A stretch of DNA of 64,000 nucleotides from an uncultured Lentimicrobiaceae bacterium. GTDB taxonomy: Bacteria > Bacteroidota > Bacteroidia > Bacteroidales > 4484-276. This document shows, piece after piece, positions 795-21,720 of this stretch. The notes beneath the pieces are model-generated. The model had not been told where the DNA came from. It worked only from the letters and a program-made list of their open reading frames with translations, and searched no databases. Location of the stretch: contig CAZQIV010000004.1 in the NCBI GenBank assembly GCA_964593705.1, forward strand, positions 27,646 to 91,645, given 5' to 3'. The position numbers and the translations under genes were made by a program. How positions within the stretch are numbered: the stretch's first letter is position 1; each line of letters begins with the position of its first letter.

Positions 795-813
795 ACCAAC
801 ATCAAATCACGAA

Positions 814-857
814 AAAGCCCTTTGAAAAATACTTTCAAAGGGCTTTTATTTTTTTTC
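814..857. terminator. Bidirectional rho-independent terminator between convergent genes
   Basis: Perfect 14-bp stem aaagccctttgaaa / tttcaaagggcttt (814-827 / 833-846) with a 5-nt loop. An A-run lies upstream and a T-run downstream. Confidence 0.8.
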
Positions 858-881: not shown

Positions 882-1865
882 TTAATACCCTGCATCAGAA
901 AAATACCTCATAAACTGTGTGCGTTCAAAGAGCACAGGTTGCTTAATGTTTTTCCGACTGGCTTTTCCCCTGAAATTCTCAATCGAATTGTAATTATGCC
1001 GCCGCATCCAATCAGTTAAGGTTTGTGTCATTTCGCTTAACACACTTGGCCCGTGTTTGTATATTGCCGAAACAATCTGGGTAACCTGCGCACCTACCAA
1101 AAGATTTTTGATTACAGCTTCTCCATCAAAAATACCTCGCGAAGCTGCCATATCCAAACGGACTTTCTGATAAAGAATCCCTATCCATCGGATGGTCATA
1201 ACATTGAGTTCTTTGCAACTCAGGATGTCACCAGGAATAATTTTCTCTTTTTCAATATCAACATCCGGACTGTAAAATTTATTAAAAAGAACAACAGCGG
1301 AGGCTTTAGTTTGAGAAACTTTATAAATAAAATTAGCAAGCCCCGAAAAATAATAAGAGATTTTAAGTGCATAAGGAATAGTAACAACATTACCGATCTT
1401 TTCGATAATATCGAAATAAATGTTCTCTTTTTCCTGGCCGGTATGATCAATTTCTGCCGGAAGCAAAAACAGATTGATCTCAAGCGCATCAGCGCCGGCC
1501 TCTTCAATCATTTTAGCATACGAAATCCATTCATCTGCCGACACACAGTTGATACTTGCAATCACCGGGATACTTAGCGCTTCTTTGTTTATTTTGATCA
1601 GCTTGATGTATTGTGAAATGTTATGTTTTTTAGAAAAATACATGGCATAATTTTCCTGATCGCTATAGGATCCATACATATTGTTCAATCGCTGTTCATC
1701 CACATCATGAAGGATTTGCTCCTCAAAAAGTGATTTTAGCACAATAGCGCCGACACCGGCTTTTTCGTAAGCAATCGAATTTTCGATATGTTCGGAAAGG
1801 CCGGAGCTACCGACAATGATCGGGCTTTTCAATTTAAGACCCATGTATGTTGTTGAAAGATCCAT
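882..1865 (-). CDS. Dihydroorotate dehydrogenase-like / PreA-like FMN TIM-barrel protein (last gene of Mbx-like operon)
   Basis: N-terminus GLKLKSPIIVGSSGLS and an overall class-1 DHOD/DPD barrel pattern, 327 aa, no ferredoxin domain. It lies 61 nt downstream of the GltD-like gene on the same strand. Confidence 0.7.
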   Translation of the reverse strand: MDLSTTYMGLKLKSPIIVGSSGLSEHIENSIAYEKAGVGAIVLKSLFEEQILHDVDEQRLNNMYGSYSDQENYAMYFSKKHNISQYIKLIKINKEALSIPVIASINCVSADEWISYAKMIEEAGADALEINLFLLPAEIDHTGQEKENIYFDIIEKIGNVVTIPYALKISYYFSGLANFIYKVSQTKASAVVLFNKFYSPDVDIEKEKIIPGDILSCKELNVMTIRWIGILYQKVRLDMAASRGIFDGEAVIKNLLVGAQVTQIVSAIYKHGPSVLSEMTQTLTDWMRRHNYNSIENFRGKASRKNIKQPVLFERTQFMRYFSDAGY

Positions 1866-1926
1866 AATTATAAAATTTAGAAGTTGGTAAATTTAATAGA
1901 GCAAATCTTTTGAAACTTAAAAAGCA

Positions 1927-3729
1927 TTACTGTTTATCAGGATGCAAAAACCTGTCGATTCCTTTTGCTGCGCTGTGTCCATTGGCAATACCATGTATTA
2001 CATCAGGCCCCTGGATAATGTCGCCACCAAAAAACAGCCAGGGCAAACTTGATTGGAAAACATCATTTACCATGATTCTTCCCCGTGGTCCCATTTCGAT
2101 ATTATCTTTTATATCCTGCGAAAGATAGCTCAGATCCATGCCCTGCCCGATGGATTCAACAACCATGTCGCCTTCGAAGAATTTGGTTGTGTCGAGATTG
2201 CATTGTGGGTTGAACATTCCTTTTTCATCGAACAATGAAAGACATTGAGCCACATGCAGGCCTTTAATTTTCCCATCAGATATTTCGATGCGCTGGGGTG
2301 CCCATCCCGGATCTACAATAGCATCTTCTTCGCGCGCTTCTACAACTTCTTCGCGATCAGCAGGCATTTTCTCTTCGGTTTCCAAACAAGTGGCAATGAC
2401 CTGTACTTTACCATACTTTTGCTTTTGAAGCCTTGCCAGCGAACGGGTAATATCCATAGCCACATTACCGCCACCAATAACAATAATTTTTTTGGCCAGA
2501 TGAATTTCTTCACCGAGGGTAATCTTGCGCAACAATTCGATGGCCTGAAAAACGTGCTTATGATCTGAGCCTTCGATGCGGGTGCTGCGACCCAAGTGGA
2601 GGCCGGTTCCTGCAAATACAGCATCAAAATCTTTTTCCAGGTCTTCAAGCAAAATATCTTTTCCTATGGTGGTATTATATTTAATCTTTACTCCTAAAGA
2701 TAAAATGTATTCGATGTCTTTATCGATCTGATCGTAGGGCAACCTGTATTCAGGAATCCCAAAACGCATCATACCCCCGGCATGAGAAAGTTTTTCGTAA
2801 ATGGTACATTCGTATCCCATCAGGGCGAGGTAATGCGCTGCCGATAGTCCGGAAGACCCTGAACCGATAATGGCAACTTTCTTTCCATTTGTGGTCAGGT
2901 TTTCAGTTTCAAGAATCTGTTTGTATTTTTCTGAAGGATTCTGGTCGGCAATGTAGCGTTTGAGCCAGCGAATAGAGATGGCTTCGCCACGATGTCCGAT
3001 CGAACAAACAGTTTCGCATTTGTGAGTACAAATCCTGCCGCATATTTCGGGCAACGGGTTTGTGTCGTATAAAATGCGCAGACCCTCTTCGAGGTCATCG
3101 TTGCGGATGGCTTTGATGTATTCGGGAATTCCCATGTGAGCCGGGCAGGTTGCCGTACAAATACCACATGCAACGCACCGGTCGGCCTCCTTCAGTGCTT
3201 CTTCCTTTGAATAGCCTTTAATCATCTCAACAAACGAGTCACTTCTTTCTTCAGGATGGAGATGCTCCATTCTTGCCCGCTGAAGGCCATAAAATTCGTA
3301 ATTTCCTTCCGGCTTTTTCCAGCCCTTTTCTTCATTTTGCCAGACTTTTTCGTCAACTCCGGGTGTAAAACGATAAGCTTCCGGGTCTTCTTCAACCCAG
3401 TTATAGGCATTCGATAATTTTAGTGAGCCTGTTGTACACACATCCACACACAAAGCACACCAGCAGCAACGGCCATAATCAATACGGGGGCGCAAACCAC
3501 TGTCGCCATCTTTGGTTTCGATGCCTTCGACCGGCACCATATCAATGGCTTCATTTTCACAAATATCTTCACAGGTTCCGCAACCGATACACAGATCAAG
3601 GTCGTTTTGGTGGAAACCACGATAACGCTCTGCACCTGGTCGCTCATTGATTGGATCTTTTAAAGCCACCGGCTCGTCAAAAACTTTTTTCCATGCGGAA
3701 AAAGGAGACAAAATATCTTTAATTTTCAT
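1927..3729 (-). CDS. Fusion protein: NuoI/MbxN-type 2x[4Fe-4S] domain + GltD/NfnB-like NAD(P)H-dependent FAD oxidoreductase
   Basis: N-terminal CIGCGTCEDIC...CCWCALCVDVC. The GltD part has CVACGICTATCP / CGRICTHKCETVC, KVAIIGSGSSGLSAAHYL and IIVIGGGNVAMD. The track start at 3741 is TTG; the ATG at 3729 (MKIKDIL) is more likely. Confidence 0.8.
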   Translation of the reverse strand: MKIKDILSPFSAWKKVFDEPVALKDPINERPGAERYRGFHQNDLDLCIGCGTCEDICENEAIDMVPVEGIETKDGDSGLRPRIDYGRCCWCALCVDVCTTGSLKLSNAYNWVEEDPEAYRFTPGVDEKVWQNEEKGWKKPEGNYEFYGLQRARMEHLHPEERSDSFVEMIKGYSKEEALKEADRCVACGICTATCPAHMGIPEYIKAIRNDDLEEGLRILYDTNPLPEICGRICTHKCETVCSIGHRGEAISIRWLKRYIADQNPSEKYKQILETENLTTNGKKVAIIGSGSSGLSAAHYLALMGYECTIYEKLSHAGGMMRFGIPEYRLPYDQIDKDIEYILSLGVKIKYNTTIGKDILLEDLEKDFDAVFAGTGLHLGRSTRIEGSDHKHVFQAIELLRKITLGEEIHLAKKIIVIGGGNVAMDITRSLARLQKQKYGKVQVIATCLETEEKMPADREEVVEAREEDAIVDPGWAPQRIEISDGKIKGLHVAQCLSLFDEKGMFNPQCNLDTTKFFEGDMVVESIGQGMDLSYLSQDIKDNIEMGPRGRIMVNDVFQSSLPWLFFGGDIIQGPDVIHGIANGHSAAKGIDRFLHPDKQ

Positions 3730-3821
3730 TGTTCTGTTCAATTTTACTGTTGTCCTTCAAGCAGAAAAGCAGTTATTGTTATTCTATAATTGCAAAATAT
3801 TGTTCCAAATATTGTGGTTCA

Positions 3822-5021
3822 TCATCGTTCAATTTCGGGTGGGCAGGTGGCAAGAGAAACCATGATGGCCGACACATCAGAAATATTAGCATTTACAAGC
3901 AGCCGTTCGAGAACCGAAACAGCATGGGTATAGCTGGGGCCGCGCAAGTTGATCCTTCGTGGAAATTCACTTCCATCCGAAACCATATAAAAACCGTATT
4001 CACCACGGCTCGACTCGCATCTTACATAGGTTTCTCCTTTGGGTATTTTCCAGTGTAACACATTAGGAGTTTCCGCACGGATATCGCCTTTGTCGGGCAT
4101 TTTAGCCATGATTTGCCTAAGTAAGTCAATTGTTGTTGTGAGGTCTTTTCGCCGCACCAAAAATCTTGAAAACACATCCGAATCATTTTCGATGTTATAA
4201 TCAAAATCGAGTTGATCGTAATATAGATATGGATAATCTTTACGCACATCTCGTTTAAATCCGGCTGCCCTGGCTACGGGACCAACAATTCCGTAGTGAT
4301 CCACCCAGTCGTTTGGAATATGGCCTATGCCAATGGTGCGCTTTTTAAATACCGCATTATTAAAGATAAGCTTATCGATGTCTTTTGCAAATTCCTCAAT
4401 TTTCACAAGATTTTCTTCGAGGCGTTTTTTAAAGCCATCAGGAAGCAAACCCCTTACTCCGCCTGGCAAAATATACATGTGATAAATTCTGGCGCCTGTA
4501 AGTTCTTCCATTCGGTCGAGGATGAGTTCGCGATAATACAAGCCCCATGCCCCTCCAAGTCCTAAGCCGATAGTTCCGGCCTGCCCAGGCACCATGCGCA
4601 GCAAAACCTGCAAGCGTGCCATTTCGAGTACAATCATCCTAAGCCAGTTTGCCATTTCGGGTACTTCAATTCCGGCCAGTTCTTCAACACCACGTGCCAG
4701 GTTATATTCGTTGGTATCAGGCTCGGGAACACACATGCGGATGCATGTCGGAAAGCATTGAATATAACGGCGGCGCTCGAACAGTTTTTCGAAGCCACGA
4801 TGCAGGTAGCCAACATGGGTTTTCGATTCCATCACCTCATCGCCGCTAATGGTTAGCTCAAGCGACATGTTGCCCGTTACTCCGGGATGGTTTGGCCCTT
4901 GCCAGACTTTTATAAATTTTTGCGACTGTAGATCAAGCACGGGCTTTCCATTTTCGTCCGTTTCGGGGAATAGGCTTCTGTCGGCTTTCCAGTTTAACAT
5001 ATTTCCGGATTTATTATTCAT
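3822..5021 (-). CDS. NuoD / MbxL-like catalytic subunit (not a [NiFe]-hydrogenase: both CxxC motifs are degenerate)
   Basis: 399 aa with GYLHRGFEKL and other NuoD/HycE-family blocks. It reads IRMCVPEPD at the L1 position and ends SLATCPPEIER. It overlaps the NuoC-like gene by 8 nt. Confidence 0.8.
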   Translation of the reverse strand: MNNKSGNMLNWKADRSLFPETDENGKPVLDLQSQKFIKVWQGPNHPGVTGNMSLELTISGDEVMESKTHVGYLHRGFEKLFERRRYIQCFPTCIRMCVPEPDTNEYNLARGVEELAGIEVPEMANWLRMIVLEMARLQVLLRMVPGQAGTIGLGLGGAWGLYYRELILDRMEELTGARIYHMYILPGGVRGLLPDGFKKRLEENLVKIEEFAKDIDKLIFNNAVFKKRTIGIGHIPNDWVDHYGIVGPVARAAGFKRDVRKDYPYLYYDQLDFDYNIENDSDVFSRFLVRRKDLTTTIDLLRQIMAKMPDKGDIRAETPNVLHWKIPKGETYVRCESSRGEYGFYMVSDGSEFPRRINLRGPSYTHAVSVLERLLVNANISDVSAIMVSLATCPPEIER

Positions 5022-5541
5022 CGGGATAGAGCTTTTGTTTCATGTAAGTTGCCGGGTCGTATGTTGTACGTCCGGGCCTCGGGAAATAGGTTTCTTCTGA
5101 GTATTTTTTAGTGTCGAAATCACGACGCATCGGAGGCATGTTATCCCAGCCTTCGAGCAAAAATGGTTCGTCCACACGCGGGCTGCCCGGAAAGTCGATG
5201 CCATACATCTCTTTCATTTCGCGTTGGAAAGTTGCAGCATGACCCCAGAGCGTATGTATCGAATCCATGTTTTCGCCATCGCGGCTAATGAAGGTACGCA
5301 GACCCAGGTCGGTTTTCGTTTCAGGGTTATTGAGCATGTAAGTAATCTGAAATTTTCCATCTTCAATCCAGTCAACGGCAGTAATCAGGATAAGATTCAC
5401 AAATCCCTCAAACGATTTCAGGTATTCGATCATCGGCAACAACTTCGCTTTTTGTACAGAGCAAAAAATTTGATAATCTTTTTTTTGCTGCAAATCGAAA
5501 ATGTCGAACCGGCTAATAAGTGTTTTAATCAAGTTTTCCAT
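5014..5541 (-). CDS. NuoC / MbxK-like subunit
   Basis: The C-terminal part of the ORF matches the NuoC 30-kDa family (TLWGHAATFQREMKEMYGIDF). The track ORF up to 5799 overlaps the NuoB-like gene. The ATG at 5541 (MENLIKT) sits 10 nt after the NuoB-like stop. Confidence 0.75.
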   Translation of the reverse strand: MENLIKTLISRFDIFDLQQKKDYQIFCSVQKAKLLPMIEYLKSFEGFVNLILITAVDWIEDGKFQITYMLNNPETKTDLGLRTFISRDGENMDSIHTLWGHAATFQREMKEMYGIDFPGSPRVDEPFLLEGWDNMPPMRRDFDTKKYSEETYFPRPGRTTYDPATYMKQKLYPDE

Positions 5542-5551
5542 AGTCAAAATG

Positions 5552-6232
5552 TTACCAGTTGTAATCGGGCATATTCCAGTCCTTAATAATTTTTTTCTGA
5601 TTGGCTTTGTACCAATCCAGATTGGTAATATATTCATTGGCGCCTTCGGCTCTGCCAGCTTTAATTCTTTCTTTGAGTTTATTGAATCCTGAGAGGATGG
5701 CTTCGGGACGAGGCATACACCCTGCAACATAAACATCAACAGGCATATAATGATCGAGGCGGTTGATGGTGTTGTAACTGTCCCAGTACATTCCGCCATT
5801 GATTGTGCAGCTTCCCAGGGCGATTACAAATTTGGGGTTTTGCATTTGTTCATAAGTCCTGATGGCGCGTTTGAGGGTTTTAACCGCGAGGTAGCCCGAA
5901 ATGATAATTACCGATGACTGGCGGGGTGTTGGCCGCATGGCTACACCATAACGATAGGCATCGAAGCGGGGTGAAAAAAGCGGTGGAAGCTCAATACTTC
6001 CGCAACCAGTGCCGAATGCCAATACCCACAGCGACTCGGCGCGTGCCCAGTTTAGAAACTTTTCGATGGTTTTATTACGGGGTTCTGATACTTTTGGCCG
6101 TTCGGTGCAAAAATAATCCTGCAATGGATCCACATTAATTTCTTCGCCTTCGGGGCCAATTACAACATGCTTCCGGTTTTCCGGCGCCAGGAATTTATCT
6201 TCCGTATTCTGTATGTTTTTTTCTTCTGACAT
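5552..6232 (-). CDS. NuoB / MbxJ-like small subunit ([4Fe-4S] N2-type)
   Basis: Contains SLWVLAFGTGCGSIE, LGSCTINGG and YVAGCMPRPE, the NuoB/hydrogenase small-subunit motifs. It has a ~60-aa N-terminal extension. Confidence 0.8.
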   Translation of the reverse strand: MSEEKNIQNTEDKFLAPENRKHVVIGPEGEEINVDPLQDYFCTERPKVSEPRNKTIEKFLNWARAESLWVLAFGTGCGSIELPPLFSPRFDAYRYGVAMRPTPRQSSVIIISGYLAVKTLKRAIRTYEQMQNPKFVIALGSCTINGGMYWDSYNTINRLDHYMPVDVYVAGCMPRPEAILSGFNKLKERIKAGRAEGANEYITNLDWYKANQKKIIKDWNMPDYNW

Positions 6233-6259
6233 TTTGAAAATTTTCCTTTGTCAAATAAA

Positions 6260-7168
6260 TTAAAAAATCAATATCACAATTGACAATACGCCCAATACCA
6301 GCGGAATTTTGAGCATCCACGGAATGGACTGATCAACACGGAAGCGCGGAAAAACCATCCCTACAAAAACCGCCCAGAAATACACAAAAAATGATTTCAC
6401 AATCAGTTCGAGCCAGCTTGAGGCTCCTCCAAAAAAGAGATTCATGTAGAGTACCGCTTCGATAACATGAAGTATTGCCCTGTTGGTTTGTAACACGCCG
6501 AGAAAGGTTCCATGGTATTCGGTTGGTGGCCCGATAGGATTTTCTTGCGGAGCCATCACAACATTGAAGGGGGAGTGACCCATAGCTCCTAAAAATGATA
6601 ACATTGCAGCAATGGTTGCCAGTGGATTGGTAAAAATAGTCCAGTGTAATATTCCGCCCTGCTGCATGGCTACAATTTCGGAAATCGACAAAGTTTTATA
6701 CTGGATGGCCAACGAAAGTACTGCCAGTGTAAAAGGCACTTCAATGGCCGTAAATTGTGCCAGACCCCTCGAAATTCCAATTGCTGAATAAGGATGACCA
6801 CCTTCGCCGGCGCCCAGCGCCATTCCAAGCATCCCAAAAAACATAAAATACGCAATGAGGATCAGGTCGCCGGTAAATGAAAAATTATTCCATATCTCCG
6901 AGCCGTAGATTAGCGGCATAAACAAAAAGATACCTACCCCCCCCGAAAGCCTGAACACAGGTCCCAGGTAAAACATTACCCCATGACTGAGTTGCGAGCG
7001 GATGCTGTAGTTTTTAATCAGATTGATATAAGGCTGATAAACTTTTATCCCCCTTCTCATGCTTACCCGCGCAATAATTTTTCTGATAATACCCGCCATG
7101 ATCAGCCCCCAGTTGAGGATGATAAAAAGACCGAGTAAAACGAATCCGATTTTTATAAGTAGTTCCAT
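6260..7168 (-). CDS. NuoH / MbxM-like integral membrane subunit
   Basis: 302-aa polytopic membrane protein of the NuoH/HycD type, placed between the antiporter and NuoB-like genes as in mbx. Confidence 0.7.
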   Translation of the reverse strand: MELLIKIGFVLLGLFIILNWGLIMAGIIRKIIARVSMRRGIKVYQPYINLIKNYSIRSQLSHGVMFYLGPVFRLSGGVGIFLFMPLIYGSEIWNNFSFTGDLILIAYFMFFGMLGMALGAGEGGHPYSAIGISRGLAQFTAIEVPFTLAVLSLAIQYKTLSISEIVAMQQGGILHWTIFTNPLATIAAMLSFLGAMGHSPFNVVMAPQENPIGPPTEYHGTFLGVLQTNRAILHVIEAVLYMNLFFGGASSWLELIVKSFFVYFWAVFVGMVFPRFRVDQSIPWMLKIPLVLGVLSIVILIF

Positions 7169-7169
7169 G

Positions 7170-10100
7170 TTAAAAAATTATCAAATACACAATAATGATG
7201 TATGCAAGAATATGGGCAAGATATGTTTGGCCGTTGCCGGAATAGATTTTCCTAAAACTATCGGCAAAGGCATGGGAAGTGCTGTTTACACCATCCCAAA
7301 AGCGTGTAACTACCGGAGTAGTCAGAAATCCTAATGCCCTGTTGTAGGGGGAAAACATATTGTGCGAAAAATGAGTGGTTTCGGGAGTAAATGGCCGTTC
7401 GCCGGAATAAACAATATTAAACTGTTTTACATTCTGAGCTTTGCGGCTCATTATCAAGAGCCAGGTGAGCAGCGTAACAAACATAACCCCGATCACCAGC
7501 ATAATTTTGTATCCACTCCAGTAACCCAGGTTGGTTGAAGCGGTAACGTTTTCCCATGTTAGCGGGTCGGTGGGGAAATACCCTGCCTGCGAAAGTAAGG
7601 CACCAATAGGTTGAAGTACCAGATCGGGGCGGGCCGAAAATATCATAATGCCAACAATAAGAATAAACTGAGGTAAAATATACCAAATCGGAACTTCCTT
7701 TACCTTCCTGAACTTATCTTTGGGCTGACCCAAAAAGATGGAATAAATCAGCTTGAAACAATATAAGAATGCAATGGTTCCAGAGAAAAATACGATGCCC
7801 CCCTGAAAATACCAGCCTTTAGAGATAACTGCATTGTAAAAAAGCCATTTACCGGCGTAACCCGACAATGGAGGAATTCCGGCAAGGGTAATAATACCTA
7901 TTAAAACGGCGATGAAACTCCAGGGCATACTTTTGATAAGGCCTCCCATTTCGTACATGTTGTGGGTCTTCACACGCATAACCACTCCGCCAATAGCGAG
8001 GAACAGCAAGGTTTTAAACATGAAGTGGTTGATCGAATAAGTTAATCCTGTAAGCCAGCCAACATTGGTCATAAAGGCAAAAGCAAAAAGGATGTATCCC
8101 AGGTTTCCCACACTCGAATAAGCCAGCAACCTTTTCGCATCTTCCTGGAAAACAGCCATCAGGTTGCCCCCCAGGGCAGTTATTGCTCCCAGCCATCCTA
8201 AGGCATAAAGCAGGGGATGCCCTCCGGCATTTTCAGCACCCATTGCCAGAAATAAAACGATAAGCCCAAAAGCGCCTCCCTTTAGCAAAATACCGGAAAC
8301 CATGGGTGAAACATCCGACTCTGCCTCGGCGTGTGCTCCGGGCAACCAGATGTGCAAACCCAGGGCAGCAGTTTTGGTAAGAAAACCTACAGCCAGCAAA
8401 GTGTAAGCCCATCCCGGAAAATGCGTTGTATTGAGCAGTGATAGCGAAATACCCGACTGTCCGGCCACCGAAAGCGCAATGCCCATAAATATCAGGTAAG
8501 CGCCTCCAAGCGAAAACAACATATAATTATAAGCATGAACAAGGGATTTTTTGCCCCTGATGATGAGCACATACGAACCTAAGGTCATCAACTCCCAGGC
8601 AAAGAAAAACTGAAGCAAATTTTTAGCTTCCACCAACCCGATCAAACCGGCATACATCATAATGGCAAAAGGGAAAAACCCGGGGCGTTTGCCTTTTACC
8701 GAATATCCGGCAAATAAGGTGAGCAGGCCGCCAATAAGGAAAATGCCTGCAAAAACCAGTCGCAGGGTATCGTCTTGTAGTGAAGGATAAAGTTGCCATG
8801 CGTAATATCCCATGCCAACAATGGCAATGGTATTTTTTATTCGGGCAGGCAAAAAATCAAGAACAAAAAGCAATAGAATAAAATAAACGGGGATCAGATT
8901 AAGGCTTAACCCACCCGGAACAGCTCCGATGGCAAAATGACTGACACCAATAATTGCCAGCGCAAACACAGCCACAGGAATAAGTTTTTCGATTCCTAAA
9001 TCAATTTTCTGGTCGGCTTCAATATCCAGCTTAATGGCAAATCCCAACCAACGGAAAAGATAAACCCCTTCGAACATCGATCCCAGGAGAATCGCAACGA
9101 TCCATCCAAATTGCCCTTGCGAAGCCAAATCCATGACCAACTGCCATTTTCCAAAAAATGAGGGAAATGGAGGAAATCCTATCAAAGCGAAAGCAAAAAG
9201 ACCGAAAGCGACTAACAGCAACGGCTTGGTTCGCAATACCGACCAGCTTCTGATGTTTTCTTTTCCAATCATACCCGATAACCAAAACAATCCTGCCTTA
9301 GCTAAAAAGTGACTGATAAACAAGCCAAAAAATACCATGCGAAGGTGGTTTCCCAAAAGATGGGAAAAACCGATAACTGCCACCATTAAACCTATCTGGC
9401 CTATTGATGAATATCCCAGCAGTCGGTTTGCATTTTGTTGGGCAATGCCCAGCACATTTGATCCTACAAAAGTTATCATCCCAATTAGGGCAACCACATT
9501 CATCCAGTCGTTTGTTCCGAAAGGCAACAATTTATAAAGCACGAAAAGTGAGGCCGTAGCCGTACCCGATGAAATCATGGCGCTTATTCCCGGATGGGCC
9601 GATTGATAAACATCAAGCCCCCAGCCATTAGCAGGAAAAGGTTTAAGCTCCAGCAGCACCGCAATAATTACAAGAAATACAGCCGTTGACAGTCCTTTGA
9701 CAGCCCCGGTATTTTTGCTAATAAAATCATCGATGTTGAGTGTGCCTGCAAAATAATAGATGAATCCAATTCCTAAAAGTAATACTGTTGAAATTACACT
9801 AACAGCAATTAAATATTTAAAACCTGCCGAAACCGAATCGATATTTTTCTTGAGAAAAATAAGGCCAATGATCGCAATGGAGGCAATTTCCAAAAATACA
9901 AACATGTTAAAAATATCGCGGGTCATAATAATAACATTCAACCCCATGATAAGTACCAGGAAAAGCACAACGGCACTTGCACCAGCTTCTTTAAAGGTTT
10001 TATACAAATATAAAAATCCAAAAAATCCAAGGATATTTGTAGCTGAGGTCAGAAATGCTTCTTCGATACCCATTTTCAGATTGATCGAAAAGGGTGGCAG

Positions 10101-10298
10101 CGCTCCTGCGGTATAAATGATAAATGGTTGCGTGGCATCGCCCATAAAATGGAGAAGCCAGCTAATAGAAACAACTGCCGGGAAAGCAAGTGTAATGAGT
10201 GCAACAAGCCGGGCAAAATCTGAACCGGGTTTTCTGAACAATCCCAGCAGGAATGCAACACTCAGCAGGACAGCAACGATATATACAGGATTTACCAT
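7170..10298 (-). CDS. Double antiporter-like subunit (two NuoL/M/N - MrpA/D modules fused; MbxH-H'-like)
   Basis: 1042 aa, about 30 predicted TM segments. The C-terminal module has the canonical LHIWLPGAHAEAESDVSPMVSGILLKGGAFG. The N-terminal module has a divergent counterpart, GWGLDVYQSAHPGISAMISSGTATASLF. Confidence 0.75.
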   Translation of the reverse strand: MVNPVYIVAVLLSVAFLLGLFRKPGSDFARLVALITLAFPAVVSISWLLHFMGDATQPFIIYTAGALPPFSINLKMGIEEAFLTSATNILGFFGFLYLYKTFKEAGASAVVLFLVLIMGLNVIIMTRDIFNMFVFLEIASIAIIGLIFLKKNIDSVSAGFKYLIAVSVISTVLLLGIGFIYYFAGTLNIDDFISKNTGAVKGLSTAVFLVIIAVLLELKPFPANGWGLDVYQSAHPGISAMISSGTATASLFVLYKLLPFGTNDWMNVVALIGMITFVGSNVLGIAQQNANRLLGYSSIGQIGLMVAVIGFSHLLGNHLRMVFFGLFISHFLAKAGLFWLSGMIGKENIRSWSVLRTKPLLLVAFGLFAFALIGFPPFPSFFGKWQLVMDLASQGQFGWIVAILLGSMFEGVYLFRWLGFAIKLDIEADQKIDLGIEKLIPVAVFALAIIGVSHFAIGAVPGGLSLNLIPVYFILLLFVLDFLPARIKNTIAIVGMGYYAWQLYPSLQDDTLRLVFAGIFLIGGLLTLFAGYSVKGKRPGFFPFAIMMYAGLIGLVEAKNLLQFFFAWELMTLGSYVLIIRGKKSLVHAYNYMLFSLGGAYLIFMGIALSVAGQSGISLSLLNTTHFPGWAYTLLAVGFLTKTAALGLHIWLPGAHAEAESDVSPMVSGILLKGGAFGLIVLFLAMGAENAGGHPLLYALGWLGAITALGGNLMAVFQEDAKRLLAYSSVGNLGYILFAFAFMTNVGWLTGLTYSINHFMFKTLLFLAIGGVVMRVKTHNMYEMGGLIKSMPWSFIAVLIGIITLAGIPPLSGYAGKWLFYNAVISKGWYFQGGIVFFSGTIAFLYCFKLIYSIFLGQPKDKFRKVKEVPIWYILPQFILIVGIMIFSARPDLVLQPIGALLSQAGYFPTDPLTWENVTASTNLGYWSGYKIMLVIGVMFVTLLTWLLIMSRKAQNVKQFNIVYSGERPFTPETTHFSHNMFSPYNRALGFLTTPVVTRFWDGVNSTSHAFADSFRKIYSGNGQTYLAHILAYIIIVYLIIF

Positions 10299-10663
10299 TT
10301 TAGCGATTTGTATTTATTGATATCATAAGTTCTATTTTCGGTGTACATGCGCAAAGCATAAGTAAGCATTAATGCGGTGATGCCCACGCCAATAACAATG
10401 GCTGTGAGTACAAGTGCCTGTGGTAATGGATCCACAATTTTTGTTGCGGCATCGGCTTTGTTAACAGCCCCATCGATAATTGGCGCTGTTTTATTTCGGA
10501 TGTACCCGATACTCACCAAAATCAAGTGAACACTGGTATCGAGAATAGAAAAGCTGAGGATAATTTTAATTATATTTTTTTGAGAGATTATTCCCCACAA
10601 GCCGGCAAGAAAAAGCAGCAAGCCTGTTGCCATACTTATGTATTCGATATTTAAATATTTCAT
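10292..10663 (-). CDS. MnhC / NuoK-like subunit (MbxG-like)
   Basis: 123 aa, 3 TM segments, with DPLPQALVLTAIVIGVGITA typical of MrpC/MnhC. It overlaps both neighbours by 4-7 nt. Confidence 0.75.
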   Translation of the reverse strand: MKYLNIEYISMATGLLLFLAGLWGIISQKNIIKIILSFSILDTSVHLILVSIGYIRNKTAPIIDGAVNKADAATKIVDPLPQALVLTAIVIGVGITALMLTYALRMYTENRTYDINKYKSLKW

Positions 10664-11358
10664 TTTTCCTCTCCTTGTGTTTGATTGAGCACAATAATAA
10701 TTTTAGAAAGTTCGGCACCTACCTTAAGGCCTATAAGGCTATAAATAATTGGGATGGCTCCCGCGCTGAGCAGCTCGCCAAAAGTTCCGAGGGGCAGAAT
10801 TTTATTATCAAGAAAGCCCGCGGCTAAAAAGATTCCAAGTACGCCAAGGATCACAAATCCGAAGCCCGAAAATGCTTCGGTAACTTTAAGGAGTGTATGG
10901 CTGATCCTGGGGCCAGATACCGACATGAGCCACAGAATTATGGCCGAAGCAAGCACAGCCCCACCTTGAAATCCCCCTCCCGGAGTAAGGTGACCATTGA
11001 TAAAAATATAAACTCCTACCAGAATGATGATGGGGAGTAACACATTGGTGGCGGTTTCGAGCAACTCGCTGGTAGCTTGTTCAGGTTTTCGGTTGGAGCT
11101 TTTTCCGGTCGAGAGCATAAAACCAATTATAGCAGCAGTAAGAAACAGGATGGTAACCTCACCCAGGGTATCAAATCCACGGTAGGTAACAACAATAGCA
11201 GTTACCAGGTTGGCAGCGCCGGTTTCGGCAGCGCCATTTTTTGCATAATATTCTGCAGTCGAATTTAGTTTATCTGCGCCGTGGTATGCCGATAGTTCCT
11301 GAAAAAGAATCCATCCCATACCTGCAATTATCAAAATCAGAATACTATTTCGTATCAT
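10660..11358 (-). CDS. MnhB-like subunit (MbxF-like)
   Basis: GAANLVTAIVVTYRGFDTLGEVTILF is the MnhB-domain signature. 232-aa membrane protein. Confidence 0.75.
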   Translation of the reverse strand: MIRNSILILIIAGMGWILFQELSAYHGADKLNSTAEYYAKNGAAETGAANLVTAIVVTYRGFDTLGEVTILFLTAAIIGFMLSTGKSSNRKPEQATSELLETATNVLLPIIILVGVYIFINGHLTPGGGFQGGAVLASAIILWLMSVSGPRISHTLLKVTEAFSGFGFVILGVLGIFLAAGFLDNKILPLGTFGELLSAGAIPIIYSLIGLKVGAELSKIIIVLNQTQGEEK

Positions 11359-11596
11359 CGGTTTGTCGGATTTTATTTAATACATAAAAGAAAATTACCA
11401 CTGTGAGTGCGCTACCAATAGATGCTTCGGTGATGGCTACATCAGGAGCAGCGAGAAAAATATATACCACCGAAGCAAACAAGCTGATAATGCCGGAGGC
11501 GATAACCGCAACCTGCAGGTTCTTGTGATGGATTGCTGTGAATGCCATGACGAGCATGATCAGCGACATTATAATTATGATTATCGAATAGAGCAT
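11345..11596 (-). CDS. DUF4040 / MbhD-MbxD-like small membrane subunit
   Basis: LAAPDVAITEASIGSAL matches the MnhB N-terminal (DUF4040) pattern. The ATG at 11596 (MLYSII) lies 7 nt after the MnhG stop, whereas the longer track ORF overlaps MnhG by 47 nt. Confidence 0.6.
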   Translation of the reverse strand: MLYSIIIIIMSLIMLVMAFTAIHHKNLQVAVIASGIISLFASVVYIFLAAPDVAITEASIGSALTVVIFFYVLNKIRQTDDTK

Positions 11597-11603
11597 ATAA
11601 TTT

Positions 11604-11948
11604 TTATTTAGCTTGTGAAACATTTTCTTCATCTTCGGCCAGCTTATCAATAGCAGTTCTTGATGAAAGTGGAACCTTTATAAAATGTGCTGCCCTGCCT
11701 AAAACATGCGATGAAACCGGATTGGAAATAAAAATAAAAATGATGAGCAAAGCAATTTTCAACAACCAGTCGGGATGAATCAACCCTATGCCAAGCAAAG
11801 TGAGCATCGAGCCCAGCGTAGAGGCTTTTGTTCCGGCTTGTATCCGGTTGTAGATGTCGGGCATACGCAACAATCCGATGCCTGCAAACAAAATAAACAT
11901 AGCCCCGATCAGGGTAACGAATGCGCCAATAATTTCCAGAATTTCCAT
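11604..11948 (-). CDS. MnhG-like subunit (MbxC-like)
   Basis: GIGLLRMPDIYNRIQAGTKASTLG is the MrpG/MnhG signature. Confidence 0.8.
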   Translation of the reverse strand: MEILEIIGAFVTLIGAMFILFAGIGLLRMPDIYNRIQAGTKASTLGSMLTLLGIGLIHPDWLLKIALLIIFIFISNPVSSHVLGRAAHFIKVPLSSRTAIDKLAEDEENVSQAK

Positions 11949-11949
11949 A

Positions 11950-12210
11950 TTACAAACTTTTTGCTAAATATTTAGCTATTACTATCACACCAATAAAACT
12001 CAGTATGCCATAAACTATCGAAACATCGATATAAATTACCCTGCCAAAAAAGTGAGCCAGCATCACTATTAAACCGATAGAACTTACAGTGAGAACATCG
12101 AGGGCTACTACGCGATCGACTACAGTGCTGCCAAGCAAAAAACGCACAATCACCAATAGAAAGGAAATAGCGATTATAACCAATGCGATGGAAAGAATAA
12201 TATTAACCAT
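11950..12210 (-). CDS. MnhF-like subunit (MbxB-like)
   Basis: LLGSTVVDRVVALDVLT is the MrpF/MnhF motif. The ATG at 12210 overlaps the MnhE stop by 8 nt; the longer track ORF runs inside MnhE. Confidence 0.75.
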   Translation of the reverse strand: MVNIILSIALVIIAISFLLVIVRFLLGSTVVDRVVALDVLTVSSIGLIVMLAHFFGRVIYIDVSIVYGILSFIGVIVIAKYLAKSL

Positions 12211-12697
12211 AAAGAACCTCCAGGTATTTTTCAAATTTTCGAATAATGGACTGTGCATACTTTTCGGTATTATCACCATCAATATGTACGCAATGTATAT
12301 AAAGGGTATTTTCTTTGATGTCGATGGTAAAAGTACCGGGGGTGAGCGTAATTGAATTGGCAAGTATCAGTCGGGCCATCTTCGATTTTAATACCGTTTC
12401 AGCTTTGATAATCCCCGGATTGATGGGCAATGCCGGATTGAGCACACGCATGGCAATGTCAACATTGGATTTCACAAGTTCCACAACAAAAACACCCAGG
12501 TAAACAAATGTGTAGTAGATCGACTTTGGATTGATATTAATATCATTAAAAATCGAACATTTCTTACAAATTGCAAAGGATAAGAGTAGCGAAACACCTG
12601 CTCCGATGAGTAGTGGTGCAATTTGAATTGTATTGTTCAGTACCATCCAAATGGCCATGAGCATTACAAATACAACAAAAATTCCCTTAAATTTCAT
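12203..12697 (-). CDS. MnhE-like subunit (MbxA-like)
   Basis: 164-aa membrane protein with the MrpE-typical ITLTPGT motif. Confidence 0.75.
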   Translation of the reverse strand: MKFKGIFVVFVMLMAIWMVLNNTIQIAPLLIGAGVSLLLSFAICKKCSIFNDININPKSIYYTFVYLGVFVVELVKSNVDIAMRVLNPALPINPGIIKAETVLKSKMARLILANSITLTPGTFTIDIKENTLYIHCVHIDGDNTEKYAQSIIRKFEKYLEVLYG

Positions 12698-12710
12698 ATT
12701 TTACTTTTTT

Positions 12711-13361
12711 TTAAATCAGTACTTTTTCTTTGTTATAAAAATTCAGGATTTCTATAAATTTCTCCCGGATTTCGATGAGCTGAACTTCCTGAAGTTTTTT
12801 TCCATAAATCCTGATAAAATCAATAAAATGGGGCTTTTCCATCCAATAGCCAATGGCTGCATCAAAATTCCGAAATACTTTTTTTGATTTCTGATAGGTA
12901 ATGAGCTGCTCAAAAGTTTTCCAATCGAGGGTTTGAGGAATTTCGAGATAAAATATGTCGGACGATAAGGCATTGCTGAAAACATTTTCACCCATAGGGT
13001 TGACCTCAAAAAACGACTTTAAATAGATATGACTGAGATAAGTGTTTATTTTTTTGTTCTGGTGAAAGTTAATTCCATGATTCACAAATAATGCTGCTAT
13101 ATCGTCCAAAGAATGGCCTTGCAAATCTTTTATCCTGATAGCCTTGCTGTATTTTCCAAGCAGCGAGATATGCGCAGGGCAGGTCTGAACACCGAATTTC
13201 TCATGGGCTTCAATACTAATTCTGCAAACAACATCCTGGTGGCAGCAAGCCAGGGTGGTAACCGGCAAATAGTACGACCTTTCTTTGCAGGTGTTGTCGG
13301 TAGGGTTATGTTCGGAGCAATAAAACCCCGGGAAAGGATCCTTTGATTCGAGCACCAACAT
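12711..13361 (-). CDS. Cys-rich hypothetical protein, first gene of the Mbx-like operon
   Basis: The ORF ends 13 nt before mnhE. Cys/His pattern: C-x10-C-x14-CC-x5-C-x15-C-x2-H. The track start at 13544 is GTG and leaves a 25-bp divergent intergenic region. The ATG at 13361 (MLVLESK) is preferred but uncertain. Confidence 0.45.
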   Translation of the reverse strand: MLVLESKDPFPGFYCSEHNPTDNTCKERSYYLPVTTLACCHQDVVCRISIEAHEKFGVQTCPAHISLLGKYSKAIRIKDLQGHSLDDIAALFVNHGINFHQNKKINTYLSHIYLKSFFEVNPMGENVFSNALSSDIFYLEIPQTLDWKTFEQLITYQKSKKVFRNFDAAIGYWMEKPHFIDFIRIYGKKLQEVQLIEIREKFIEILNFYNKEKVLI

Positions 13362-13569
13362 TTTGGAGACAGGTTCAAGGGAAGTATTTGATAATGTTTC
13401 CCTTTTTAAAATTGTACCGTATTTTGCCAATGTATGTTTCAATTGCTTAGTTTTGTAGAAATTTGTTGCAAAAGTGTAATTTGAATCTTTTGGTTTGATA
13501 AATAAAAAATGATTTGTCAACCGGAAAAAATTAAGATATCTCACTTTTTTTGATGTTTTATTTTGTAAA

Positions 13570-14268
13570 ATGCTGAATACGAATACAAAACTTAAATGTA
13601 GCCTGTGTACCTACAAGCAGCAATGCTATTTTAGTAGTTTAACCGAAACCGAATCTGATTTTTTATATCAAAACAAAACAGAAGTAGATTTTAAAGCTGG
13701 CCAAACCATCTATAAACAGGGTACTGTTTCGAAATATCTCATTTTTTTATTGAGTGGCATGGCTAAAGTTTTTATTGAAGGCGACAACAACAAAAATTAC
13801 ATTTTACAACTGGTTAAGCCTTTTCATTTTTTAGACTTCCCCGCCATTTTCGACAACGATATGCTTTTCCGTTCTTCGGTGGCGGTAATGGATTCGCGTG
13901 CCTGCCTTGTTGATATCGATGCTTTTAAATCGTTGGTGCTTTCCGATAAAAAACATTTCCCCCGCATCATCAGGCATTTCAACCAACTTCAGCAACAATA
14001 CTCCACCAGGTTGATCAATGTATTGTATAAAAATATGGAGGCACGCATTGCCGATGCGTTACTTTACCTGGTAAACGAAGTTTATTACAGCCGTGTTTTT
14101 ACCCTGACCATTTCGCGAAAAGAGCTTGCCGAATTGGCCGGCCTGTCCAAGGAGAGTACCAGCCGTATTTTAAGCCAGTTAAAAGATGAAGAAGTTTTAA
14201 AAATTAAAGGAAAAGAAATTGAGGTACTCAATAAAAAATACCTTGAGCAACTTTCAAGAATTGGTTAA
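13570..14268 (+). CDS. FNR-type (Crp/Fnr family) [4Fe-4S] oxygen-sensing transcription regulator
   Basis: cNMP-binding-like fold plus a C-terminal HTH (RKELAELAGLSKESTSRIL). Cys10, 13, 19 and 112 have exactly the spacing of E. coli FNR Cys20/23/29/122. Confidence 0.8.
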   Translation: MLNTNTKLKCSLCTYKQQCYFSSLTETESDFLYQNKTEVDFKAGQTIYKQGTVSKYLIFLLSGMAKVFIEGDNNKNYILQLVKPFHFLDFPAIFDNDMLFRSSVAVMDSRACLVDIDAFKSLVLSDKKHFPRIIRHFNQLQQQYSTRLINVLYKNMEARIADALLYLVNEVYYSRVFTLTISRKELAELAGLSKESTSRILSQLKDEEVLKIKGKEIEVLNKKYLEQLSRIG

Positions 14269-17495: not shown

Positions 17496-17507
17496 TAAAG
17501 AAACAAA

Positions 17508-18449: not shown

Positions 18450-18468
18450 ATAAATAAAATCTCATATC

Positions 18469-18987: not shown

Positions 18988-19008
18988 TCACACACAAATT
19001 TAAGTAAC

Positions 19009-19599: not shown

Positions 19600-19611
19600 C
19601 TGTTTACAGCT

Positions 19612-20226: not shown

Positions 20227-20249
20227 TCAGCATTGGAATCATTGTATCA

Positions 20250-20442: not shown

Positions 20443-20600
20443 GATCATTTTTGGAGTATTAATGGAAAATTGATAAGTGTAAATAAAAATATGAAATGGG
20501 TAAAAGTAGAGAATGATTATTTTTAGAGAATTAAAAGATACATGGAAATAAATCTCAAAATCATTCACACTACTTTTTGCCATCTAAAATTTAATATGCT

Positions 20601-21600: not shown

Positions 21601-21720
21601 TGTTCTTTTATGTACATTGATTTTGCATCCACAAAAATGGTAGTAGAATCTTTTATTTTTTATGATGTATTGCAGGCACTCAACAATTTGTAATTTTGGC
21701 AAATATTATCAAAAGTCTAA

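Follow-up and report, generated by a model that had tools for sequence, protein, structure and literature searches.

The window, by which we mean the whole stretch of 64,000 nucleotides of DNA analysed here, from an uncultured Lentimicrobiaceae bacterium, carries a genuine 14-gene operon of a bacterial relative of the MBS/Mbx complexes, the ion-pumping sulfur reducers of archaea, in which an NAD(H)-binding flavoprotein is fused to the electron-input subunit. The encoded complex is of the MBS/Mbx type and comprises a membrane arm of Mrp origin (A, B, C, D, E, G and H-H′), an M subunit as anchor, and a peripheral J-K-L-N arm. Judged from sequence, its function is best read as that of an anaerobically induced, ion-translocating, NADH-linked sulfane-sulfur reductase, a tentative reading whose chances we place slightly below even.

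On the minus strand, 14 co-oriented, close-packed genes run from about position 13442 down to 882, and all of their open reading frames were verified. The first-pass annotation had listed all 14 on that strand, with overlaps at 12203/12210, 10660/10663, 10292/10298 and 5014/5021 that are correct; its upper limit of 80 nt for the gaps fails between the NuoD-like and NuoI/GltD genes, where the distance is 92 nt if the latter begins, as is probable, at ATG 3729 (600 aa, the length found in homologues). Each of its subunit assignments by motif was borne out in HMM searches (Pfam, NCBIfam). The genes, followed by the terminator, are:

12711..13442, minus strand: lineage-restricted accessory Cys ORF, 243 aa (TTG start; four invariant Cys)
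12203..12697, minus strand: MbsA, MrpE-like membrane subunit (PF01899 MNHE, 1.2e-36)
11950..12210, minus strand: MbsB, MrpF-like membrane subunit (PF04066, 3.6e-16)
11604..11948, minus strand: MbsC, MrpG-like membrane subunit (PF03334, 2.7e-25)
11345..11596, minus strand: MbsD (MbhD-type) membrane subunit (PF13244 MbhD, 4.6e-19)
10660..11358, minus strand: MbsE, MbhE N-terminal part plus MnhB domain (PF20501 + PF04039)
10292..10663, minus strand: MbsG, MrpC/NuoK-like (PF00420, Oxidored_q2, 8.8e-24)
7170..10298, minus strand: fused MbsH-MbsH′, 1042 aa, two Proton_antipo_M modules in one polypeptide
6260..7168, minus strand: MbsM (NuoH-like), membrane anchor of the peripheral arm (PF00146, NADHdh, 2.5e-41)
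5552..6232, minus strand: MbsJ-like (NuoB-like), Oxidored_q6, best PDB match 6u8y_J
5014..5541, minus strand: MbsK (NuoC-like), Complex1_30kDa (PF00329, 1.4e-23)
3822..5021, minus strand: MbsL-like (NuoD-like), Complex1_49kDa, best structure match 6u8y_L
1927..3729, minus strand: MbsN (2x[4Fe-4S], NuoI-like) plus NfnB/GltD-type flavoprotein (Fer4_20+Pyr_redox_2; NF010590)
882..1865, minus strand: DHOD-like FMN TIM-barrel protein (DHO_dh) without catalytic Cys/Ser (NF005741)
813..847, bidirectional: intrinsic terminator that also serves the convergent aconitase gene (15-bp stem, A and T runs on either side)

The hairpin at 813-847, 3′ of the last gene, is the sole strong hairpin outside coding sequence, and a scan of the intergenic gaps of the operon found no terminator-like sites. 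The MbsD start is most likely ATG 11596, homologues being called at 70-83 aa, and MbsK is called at 175 aa on an identical JGI contig. No hyp/hyc-type domains were detected among the window ORFs searched against Pfam or NCBIfam.

The complex type is known from the literature and is common in anaerobic bacteria. The extended architecture had initially been considered possibly undescribed, which finds no support as regards its main element: the GltD fusion has been known since 2015, is covered by NCBIfam family NF010590, and has relatives encoded in at least 590 species genomes. In that year, a gltD-like flavoprotein was reported at the NuoI position in mbx-like operons of Thermotoga and proteobacteria (PMC4758237). 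Among the 80 related loci retrieved, all complete loci (49/49) are colinear and share one 12-gene core order. Sulfur-reducing Thermotogae carry relatives, and sulfur-oxidising tubeworm symbionts have relatives with the same fusion. Only the DHOD-like gene and the narrow-lineage Cys ORF appear not to be discussed in the literature searched.

The pyridine-nucleotide module proposed at the end of the operon is real. NF010590 spans the full length of the fusion protein (886.6 bits), of which residues 5-147 match 6u8y_N (5e-23) and residues 150-600 match NfnB-type chains (1e-70 to 1e-75) ahead of GltD (1e-46) and dihydropyrimidine dehydrogenase (DPD; 1e-31). The flavoprotein part is of the FAD and NAD(H) type and has two further [4Fe-4S] motifs. 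At the site where the NADPH-binding proteins NfnB, StnC and NfnI have YRR, it has CLE, whose Leu and Glu do not vary across the family; the protein is thus probably specific for NADH rather than NADPH, a call that combines this one motif with general Rossmann-fold rules. GltD-like modules have been described as conveying electrons from NAD(P)H to a partner via low-potential [4Fe-4S] clusters (PMC8097209), a point in favour of the NADH-linked reading.

This module is also where the main rival applies, namely an ion-translocating ferredoxin:NAD(P)+ oxidoreductase, Rnf-like in function, which we consider rather unlikely. Ferredoxin reduced by PFOR would deliver electrons through the MbsN and GltD clusters to FAD, reducing NAD+ while Na+ or H+ is pumped, and in autotrophs the reaction would run in reverse and yield reduced ferredoxin. 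Its energetics are comfortable, at an estimated 130-170 mV or so; the GltD part is nearest to NfnB-type proteins, which link NADPH and ferredoxin, and relatives occur in symbionts that use the rTCA cycle and require reduced ferredoxin. It is, moreover, the published annotation of the bacterial mbx-like operons (PMC4758237; Mesotoga preprint 10.1101/322537), which counts against the sulfane reading. However, the archaeal Mbx was once assigned in the same way and is now regarded as a ferredoxin-dependent sulfane reductase (PMC7684303), the route from ferredoxin to FAD would skip the J-L-M interface where redox chemistry and pumping are coupled in complex I-type machines, and the strictly conserved open three-Cys cluster would be left without explanation.

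[quoted passage not shown] The corresponding motif of Pyrococcus furiosus MbsJ is FCTGCGGIE, in which C25 is not a ligand (PMC7684303). Across representatives the C25-equivalent position is G, V or C, whereas complex I types have CC, and at the level of 50%-identity representatives the TGCG-type NuoB-like sequences separate from the complex I 'CC' type. The MbsL-like subunit lacks NiFe and quinone ligands, which, together with the three-Cys proximal cluster, is a hallmark of MBS (Yu 2020, PMC7684303). Its vestigial Cys at the MbsL C85 and C385 positions are present here and variable within the family.

A group-4 [NiFe] hydrogenase (Mbh/Ech-type) or a canonical NADH:quinone complex I is refuted at the sequence level, and we give this alternative practically no credence. 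The shared ancestry and Pfam families are compatible with it, and NF004739 'NuoD' barely passes its cutoff (362.5 vs 360). Nevertheless, the L subunit has RGFEK where the N-terminal CxxC would be expected and a single C-terminal Cys, and scores 298 bits against MbsL (E-value for 6u8y_L, 6e-88) compared with 197 against Nqo4 (5e-57), 119 against MbhL (2e-33) and 97 against HycE, which places it outside both groups; genes for NuoA, NuoJ, NuoE, NuoF and NuoG are absent, and the gene order is that of mbs, not nuo.

The same subunits bear on a further possibility, an NADH:acceptor oxidoreductase that would serve as an alternative form of complex I, with a GltD-type N-module and an acceptor other than sulfane sulfur, candidates being menaquinone and further hydrophobic or small inorganic compounds. 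Bacteroidota make menaquinone, and the driving force to it would fit two pump modules. The hydrophobic chamber of MBS (PMC7684303) and the only sporadic presence of sulfur genes beside the operon also favour such an acceptor. Against it, the ligands of the quinone head group, Nqo4 H38 and Y87, are replaced by Thr and Val here and in the family, J is without the tandem Cys that quinone-reducing relatives typically have, and Thermotogae with the same complex are not known to have quinones; we regard it as improbable.

The DHOD-like protein matches NF005741 'dihydroorotate dehydrogenase-like protein' with 391 bits (cutoff 303). At the position of Cys130 in Lactococcus lactis DHODA it has Leu or Ile in all loci, while Lys and Asn are retained at putative FMN sites, positions that we take to contact FMN in the L. 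lactis enzyme. Its gene lies directly 3′ of the fusion gene in 53/74 loci long enough to judge and is absent from 21 loci with the same core, including all those of Spirochaetia, Cloacimonadota, Delongbacteria and Aminicenantes, as well as from gammaproteobacterial and archaeal operons; the protein appears dispensable in other phyla. By analogy with the FMN domain of DPD, it probably docks on the 8Fe domain, and may form a side branch for a second substrate or partner. In a rival reading of the Bacteroidales form, the complex would be a branched, DPD-like three-site enzyme with the FMN site as catalytic end, where an organic C=C substrate is reduced or oxidised with NADH while the membrane arm adds or harvests ion-motive energy, possibly with flavin-based bifurcation at the NfnB-like FAD. 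The MbsN 8Fe domain, GltD-like module and DHOD-like protein do make up the full DPD domain set, adjacent in those 53 loci and with the Lys and Asn conserved, but the frequent absence of the gene, the loss of the catalytic Cys/Ser and the lack of an NfnA/PyrK-like [2Fe-2S] partner for a bifurcating geometry speak against this reading, which we consider highly improbable.

At the other end of the operon, the Cys ORF is a real gene, although its start had been placed at 13361; TTG 13442 is most likely, since a conserved 'KYGTILKRE' lies upstream of the 13361 ATG and homologues have about 243 aa. In the four contigs inspected, its position is between MnhE and the Crp/Fnr gene. Its relatives form only 18 protein clusters, all hypothetical, of which the few with a named source are from Bacteroidales; it matched no Pfam or NCBIfam family, and its AF2 model (pLDDT 87) no PDB fold at E<=0.001. 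Upstream of it are:

13467..13479, minus strand: candidate -7 promoter element of the Bacteroidota type (TTACACTTTTGCA), some 25 nt before the first gene
13532..13543: candidate operator, palindrome TGAGATATCTTA, within the 127-bp divergent intergenic region
13570..14268, plus strand: divergent FNR-type Crp/Fnr regulator, 232 aa (NCBIfam Crp/FtrB/Fnr matches)
14719..21239, plus strand: Psr/Phs-type molybdopterin reductase (A, B, C), split YedE/TsuA-like transporter and two rhodanese-like genes (NCBIfam)

The -7 element, which resembles the TAnnTTTG consensus, is kept in loci L082 and L084; a sigma-70 scan was uninformative. The palindrome, with a background frequency of 0.04 per kb, recurs in perfect form (TGAGATATCTCA) in L002 and L017 and in near-perfect form in L010, L082 and L084, and is a candidate operator to which the regulator may bind. 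In 23 related loci, a divergently oriented Crp/Fnr gene is found upstream of MnhE. The regulator itself has an N-terminal Cx2Cx5C motif and a fourth Cys, and C10, C13, C19 and C112 are retained without change in four orthologues; these four Cys and the conserved intergenic palindrome are the observations in favour of anoxic regulation.

The polysulfide-reductase-like operon noted at 1.3 kb distance is likewise real, starting at 14719 with the regulator gene in between, and constitutes context outside the MBS-like operon. It has NrfC/TtrB/DsrO-type and NrfD-type subunits, TsuA/YedE and rhodanese-region matches, and a PhsA NCBIfam match (9e-142) below cutoff. Its linkage to the MBS-like operon is only sporadic: a Psr/Phs, YedE and rhodanese cluster occurs within 10 kb in 2/80 related loci (L064 and L065) and in 0/4 near-relative contigs examined. 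For the sulfane reading, sulfur genes adjoin the operon here and in those two loci, and carriers include sulfur reducers and oxidisers; against it, the nearest relatives are without Psr adjacency. Under standard conditions, the step from NADH (-320 mV) to polysulfide (about -260 mV) would, by our estimate, supply little driving force for a complex with two pump modules, becoming adequate only at low sulfide. Mesotoga prima Mbx genes are, in addition, weakly expressed on thiosulfate (10.1101/322537), which also weighs against it.

As a sulfane-sulfur reductase, the complex would be switched on under anoxia by the FNR-type regulator. NAD(H), probably NADH rather than NADPH, would exchange hydride with FAD, from which electrons would pass through the two GltD-type and two MbsN-type clusters to the three-Cys proximal cluster, whose open iron may reduce the sulfane sulfur of polysulfide or persulfide to sulfide, as likewise proposed for P. 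furiosus MBS. Sulfur chemistry at the interface of arm and membrane would then power H+/Na+ translocation. The fused flavoprotein would act as an alternative 'N-module', through which glycolytic NADH could feed a machine that is ferredoxin-fed in Thermococcales.

In comparison with known systems, the Mbx/MBS-type identity originally proposed is upheld: the subunits compared, L, J, H, H′ and N, all match P. furiosus MBS (6u8y) best, by a wide margin over complex I, NDH-1 and MBH, with residues 7-274 of MbsH-MbsH′ matching 6u8y_H and residues 464-1037 matching 6u8y_X (MbsH′) over its full length. The archaeal mbx gene order originally cited is correct as verified in Thermococcus sp. 2319x1, whose mbs cluster has the order found here and the same MbsE domain pair. 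The operon differs from the archaeal complex in the fusion of MbsH and MbsH′ (in 53/54 related loci; Thermococcus and a gammaproteobacterial symbiont have two separate genes), in the fusion of MbsN to a flavoprotein, and in the addition of a catalytically altered DHOD-like protein.

The operon comprises 14 co-oriented minus-strand ORFs, extending from about 13.4 kb down to 0.88 kb and joined by short overlaps or small gaps, in which a terminator scan returned no terminator-like hit. The subunit calls of the first-pass annotation, made by motif, were each confirmed by Pfam and NCBIfam searches, the sole operon ORF without a family match in either being a Cys-rich one (Cys ORF). In order of transcription, the features are:

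12711-13442, minus strand: Cys ORF, first gene of the operon
next six genes, minus strand: membrane-arm subunits of the families MNHE, MrpF, MnhG, MbhD, MbhE+MnhB and Oxidored_q2
next gene, minus strand: pump protein of 1042 aa with two Proton_antipo_M modules
next four genes, minus strand: anchor and peripheral-arm subunits of the families NADHdh, Oxidored_q6, Complex1_30kDa and Complex1_49kDa
1927-3729, minus strand: fusion protein, a NuoI-like 2x[4Fe-4S] domain followed by Fer4_20 and Pyr_redox_2
882-1865, minus strand: last gene, product with a DHO_dh domain (DHOD-like protein)
813-847: bidirectional hairpin with a 15-bp stem, closing the operon against a convergent aconitase gene

Two start sites of the first-pass annotation were corrected. 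The Cys ORF most likely begins at TTG 13442 (243 aa) rather than at ATG 13361, because the conserved N-terminus 'KYGTILKRE' lies upstream of the latter, and the fusion gene probably begins at ATG 3729, giving 600 aa and matching the length of its homologues. A sigma-70 promoter scan (28 sites versus 35.6 expected) was uninformative, as expected for Bacteroidota.

The operon had been read as encoding an Mbx/MBS-type complex, and this identification is correct: all subunits compared with PDB match the MBS complex (formerly Mbx) of Pyrococcus furiosus (6u8y) best and by wide margins. The NuoD-like L subunit matches 6u8y_L at 6e-88, compared with 5e-57 for Nqo4 and 2e-33 for MbhL, and the NuoB-like J subunit matches 6u8y_J at 2e-62, compared with 2.5e-39 for NdhK and 1e-25 for MbhJ. 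In the fused pump protein, residues 7-274 match MbsH (6u8y_H) best, and residues 464-1037 match MbsH′ (6u8y_X), aligned to residues 32-612 of its 618-residue chain; both the second antiporter-like module and an H′ with the C-terminal TMH15-16/HL extension are therefore present in the window. The archaeal gene order on which the first-pass annotation relied was tested directly in Thermococcus sp. 2319x1 (locus L086), whose cluster runs MNHE-MrpF-MnhG-MbhD-MbhE/MnhB-q2-H-H′-NADHdh-q6-30kDa-49kDa-Fer4 and equals the window order. The MbsL of this strain is 89% identical to that of P. furiosus, and the window L subunit is 40% identical to Thermococcus MbsL. The L subunit was placed by bit-score gaps and motif partitions. 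A group 4 [NiFe] hydrogenase (Mbh/Ech/Hyc) was rejected, as the two CxxC motifs are absent from the L subunit, which carries 'HRGFEK' at its N-terminal and 'TCPPEIER' at its C-terminal site and scores weakly against MbhL (119 bits) and HycE (97 bits).

The catalytic site of MBS is defined by a proximal [4Fe-4S] cluster held by three MbsJ cysteines only, C25 being too distant, by an MbsL with two vestigial, non-catalytic cysteines, and by the lack of the Nqo4 quinone ligands H38/Y87 and of MbhL E21 (Yu et al. 2020, PMC7684303; PMC8165549). In the window, the J motif reads FGTGCGSIE, versus FCTGCGGIE in MbsJ and 'CC' in complex I, and alignment shows equivalents of MbsJ C28, C93, and C123, with Gly at the C25 position. 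Without the tandem Cys, only three cysteines are available for the proximal cluster, which is predicted to have three-Cys ligation and an open Fe site. All 64 of the related loci surveyed show this pattern; the tubeworm symbiont record has Ns masking the MbsJ N-terminus. In a J search against 1.8 billion representatives, the approximately 20 best clusters showed T-G-C-G, their C25 position being G, V, or C, and the plateau below 142 bits was uniformly of the CC type, so that the TGCG type is set apart from it. The complete loss of the fourth, non-ligand Cys lends independent evolutionary support to a functional three-Cys cluster, the mechanism proposed from the archaeal structure. In the L subunit, alignment to 6u8y_L and 2fug_4 places Thr and Val at the Nqo4 H38 and Y87 positions; like MbsL, the subunit lacks both a NiFe site and quinone ligands. 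The two vestigial cysteines are present in the window and replaced by Ala or Tyr in many relatives across the family survey, a variability that fits their dispensability in P. furiosus. Respiratory complex I (Nuo) was likewise rejected, given TGCG rather than CC in J, Thr/Val at the quinone-ligand positions, and an Mrp-type membrane arm in mbs rather than nuo order.

The gene directly after that of the NuoD-like subunit encodes, as a single polypeptide, a NuoI-type 2x[4Fe-4S] N-terminal part and a GltD-like C-terminal part, the PDB matches splitting into MbsN-type and GltD-type at about residue 150. The first 147 residues match MbsN (6u8y_N) at 5e-23, and the flavoprotein part is closest to NfnB-type chains (1e-70 to 1e-75; 5jca_L 6e-72, 4ylf_B 1e-70), followed by GltD (1e-46) and DPD (1e-31). 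The whole protein scores 886.6 bits against NCBIfam NF010590 over positions 3-609 of 611, the equivalog cutoff being 946, and the same fusion arrangement occurs in 80 related loci and in L087, a locus of a tubeworm symbiont. GltD-like modules pass electrons from NAD(P)H to a partner via two low-potential clusters (PMC8097209), and with an NfnB/GltD module fused to N, a pyridine nucleotide probably serves as electron donor, in place of or alongside ferredoxin. After the second Rossmann strand, the 'YRR' of NfnB, NfnI-L, and StnC is replaced by 'CLE' in the window, of which Leu and Glu are invariant in the family. Since general Rossmann-fold rules predict NADH rather than NADPH where the Arg-Arg pair is replaced in this way, the fused flavoprotein is probably NADH-specific.

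A second GltD-like protein (1082 aa, with Fer4_20 and Pyr_redox_2) is encoded elsewhere in the window (39005-42253, minus strand). Beside it are encoded a xanthine-dehydrogenase-family molybdoenzyme with a [2Fe-2S] domain (33086-35632, minus strand) and two PLP enzymes (35629-36849 and 37406-38875, minus strand); the layout of 33086-42253 resembles that of the ygeW-ygfK selenium-dependent hydroxylase/purine cluster.

The best-supported reading of the complex is NADH-linked, ion-pumping reduction of sulfane sulfur, where we infer donor, acceptor, direction, and coupling alike from a base of subunit homology, motifs, fusion, and synteny that is itself established. NADH would reduce the FAD of the fused flavoprotein; from there, electrons would reach the three-Cys cluster through four [4Fe-4S] clusters, and sulfane sulfur would be reduced at its open iron. 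Both pump modules and the Mrp-type Na+/H+ module would be driven by this reaction at the arm-membrane interface. By our own estimate, the standard driving force from NADH to polysulfide is small, and low sulfide would improve matters. The main rival, oxidoreduction between ferredoxin and NAD(P)+, has better energetics and the weight of published annotation on its side, but it leaves the strict conservation of the L/J site unexplained, and the same assignment has been superseded for the archaeal prototype. The weak expression of Mbx in Mesotoga grown on thiosulfate counts against the sulfane-reductase reading.

Anaerobic induction of the operon is likely, as suggested by an FNR motif, a conserved palindrome, and a divergent Crp/Fnr gene. 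The product of the divergent regulator gene (13570-14268) has the FNR Cx2Cx5C motif and one additional Cys; the four cysteines are invariant in orthologues, and a divergent Crp/Fnr gene was found in 23 loci. Between the regulator gene and the operon lies the palindrome TGAGATATCT(C/T)A, which is conserved in the nearest relatives and has a background frequency of 0.04 per kb. Beyond the regulator, the region 14719-22560 (plus strand) encodes a molybdopterin reductase of the Psr/Phs type (A, B, C), together with a split YedE/TsuA-like transporter, two proteins resembling rhodanese, and TatC. Among NCBIfam models, the reductase matches PhsA best, below cutoff, and polysulfide, thiosulfate, or tetrathionate are candidate substrates. 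This neighbourhood weakly supports a sulfur role of the operon: of the 80 related loci, only L064 and L065 also have this cluster near the operon, and it is absent upstream of the regulator in four near-relative contigs (L082-L085); adjacency therefore counts as weak context rather than as functional evidence. Further along the window, a formiminotransferase-cyclodeaminase gene (23972-25657, minus strand) and a gene whose product carries a biopterin-dependent aromatic amino acid hydroxylase domain (26155-27894, plus strand) represent ordinary amino-acid catabolism, unrelated to the MBS-like operon.

The DHOD-like protein belongs to NCBIfam NF005741 ('DHOD-like protein'), and its gene is adjacent in 53 of the best 80 loci, absent in 21, and undeterminable in 6. 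Its active-site loop reads 'EINLFLLP', versus 'ELNLSCPN' in Lactococcus lactis DHODA, and the position of the catalytic Cys/Ser is Leu or Ile in all 53 loci; because this residue is missing, a true DHOD or DPD was rejected. Lys and Asn are kept at what we take to be the FMN-contacting positions of L. lactis DHODA. It is conceivable, if improbable, that the Bacteroidales form is a three-site machine, in which an NADH site (NfnB-type FAD), an FMN site, and the membrane-coupled three-Cys cluster would be connected by DPD-like [4Fe-4S] wiring and flavin-based bifurcation or confurcation joined to an Mrp-type pump; if true, two known anaerobic energy-coupling modes would be united in one complex, a combination not described before. 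The Cys ORF has homologues in 18 clusters of a narrow lineage, the few with a source name being Bacteroidales, and sits between the regulator gene and MnhE in four contigs examined. It has four invariant cysteines, and its AF2 model (pLDDT 87, pTM 0.83) shows repeated helix-strand-strand units. A Foldseek search against PDB returned no match at E<=0.001 (TM <=0.27), so no function is assigned; judging from the model, the protein may represent a new small fold with a four-Cys site.

The suggestion that the extended architecture might be undescribed fails for the core: mbx-like operons with a gltD-like NuoI were reported in 'Thermotoga and proteobacteria' by Degli Esposti 2015 (PMC4758237), and the N-GltD fusion is the subject of a dedicated NCBIfam model, NF010590. 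A relative of the fusion protein, which has at least 120 close clusters, is encoded in at least 590 GTDB species genomes. The architecture is thus known and common. In Thermotogae papers, the complex is routinely annotated as NADP:ferredoxin oxidoreductase. A literature search found nothing specific on Mbx in Bacteroidota/Marinilabiliales; a match for 'MbsL' (PMC13332712) was a false positive, 'mbsl' denoting metres below sea level.

Among the best 80 loci, the 12 core genes are colinear in all 49 complete loci, and 30 of the 31 incomplete ones are consistent with the same core order. Their hosts include Bacteroidales, Marinilabiliales, and Prolixibacter, with two cultured type strains, and MAGs of Chlorobiota, Spirochaetia, Aminicenantes, Delongbacteria, Cloacimonadota, and Neomarinimicrobiota. 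In the window, two features are clade-specific, namely the fused H-H′ and the DHOD-like subunit, and the accessory Cys ORF is lineage-specific. Of the 54 loci of the Bacteroidota/Chlorobiota/Spirochaetia clade, 53 encode H and H′ as one polypeptide, and separate genes are present in the gammaproteobacterial symbiont and Thermococcus; the sole locus with an interrupted frame (L008, 3447-5495, a 682-aa ORF) probably reflects a frameshift or assembly error in that MAG. In 32 related loci (L012, 6921-7394; L056, 11809-12255; L067, 11792-12262; and 29 others), the operon ends, after the GltD fusion or DHOD-like gene, with a CBS-domain-pair gene of about 155 aa, which is absent from the window and whose product may be an adenine-nucleotide-sensing regulator of the complex. 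One Spirochaetia MAG (GMC4.metabat2.27) carries at least two operon copies (L047, from 8128 onward, and L050), and in L047, a second MnhE gene starts directly after the GltD fusion gene of the first operon. In Chromatiales and in tubeworm symbionts that oxidise sulfur, an operon in mbs order with the MbsN-GltD fusion ends in a rubrerythrin-like gene, exemplified by L087 of the Lamellibrachia barhami endosymbiont (RZUD01000013.1, 1750-13483; fusion protein 612 aa). The symbiont operon is exactly as described in PMC4758237, and its L subunit, together with that of Chromatiales, is 50-53% identical to P. furiosus MbsL. These hosts suggest a role in stored-sulfur use or reverse electron flow.

Between 2018 and 2020, archaeal Mbx was recognised to be a sulfane reductase, which left its far more widespread bacterial homologues with an out-of-date Fd:NAD(P)+ oxidoreductase annotation. 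The bacterial family retains the predicted open three-Cys cluster without exception in our survey, and ferredoxin input appears to be replaced by a fused, probably NADH-specific flavoprotein. If this module serves as the input, a complex I-type machine would have acquired an 'N-module' a second time, independently, and these complexes would be a major, so far unrecognised way in which NADH-dependent sulfur reduction proceeds in anoxic sediments, digesters, and symbionts. The window adds one more member rather than a new principle; what it offers is a sharpened, testable hypothesis together with cultured organisms, since the existence of cultured carriers (Prolixibacter bellariivorans, P. denitrificans) makes the question directly testable.

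Several known systems share parts of this design. Together, the fusion and DHOD-like proteins hold all modules of DPD (PreT/PreA and the mammalian enzyme), namely a GltD-like part, an FMN TIM barrel, and an 8Fe ferredoxin-like domain, but the modules are rearranged and split between two genes, the 8Fe domain is a NuoI/MbsN-type one, there is no catalytic Cys, and the match is far weaker than that to NfnB (1e-31 versus 1e-75). With NfnAB/SudAB (NfnB being the SudA large subunit), the FAD- and NAD-binding domains and the Fer4_20 two-cluster domain are shared, whereas Pfam and NCBIfam searches detected no NfnA/PyrK-like [2Fe-2S]/FAD partner gene within the operon, the NADPH motif has given way to 'CLE', and the module forms one chain with a complex I-type NuoI/MbsN domain and is tied to a membrane complex. 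Complex I, NDH-1, and Ehr have in common with it a homologous Q-module, antiporter-like subunits, and the idea of attaching a soluble dehydrogenase module to an 11-subunit-like core; unlike them, the window operon has no NuoA, NuoJ, NuoE, NuoF, or NuoG genes, and its peripheral arm is joined via an Mrp-type membrane arm. The MBS of Thermococcales has the same 13 subunit types in the order A-B-C-D-E-G-H-H′-M-J-K-L-N, from which the window differs in joining H and H′ in one polypeptide, in changing the non-ligand Cys25 of MbsJ to Gly, in adding the DHOD-like protein and the Cys ORF, in having an FNR-type regulator rather than SurR, and in an N subunit that carries a 450-residue NfnB/GltD-type module, whereas MBS has a free-standing MbsN of about 200 aa that takes electrons from ferredoxin. 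Bacterial mbx-like operons (Thermotogae/Proteobacteria; Mesotoga Theba_1796-1808; NF010590/PRK13984) have the core and the N-GltD fusion as in the window; the symbiont operon differs in its separate H and H′ and its terminal rubrerythrin-like gene, and loci of the Bacteroidota/Chlorobiota/Spirochaetia clade frequently carry, in addition, a DHOD-like gene, a CBS-pair gene, or both.
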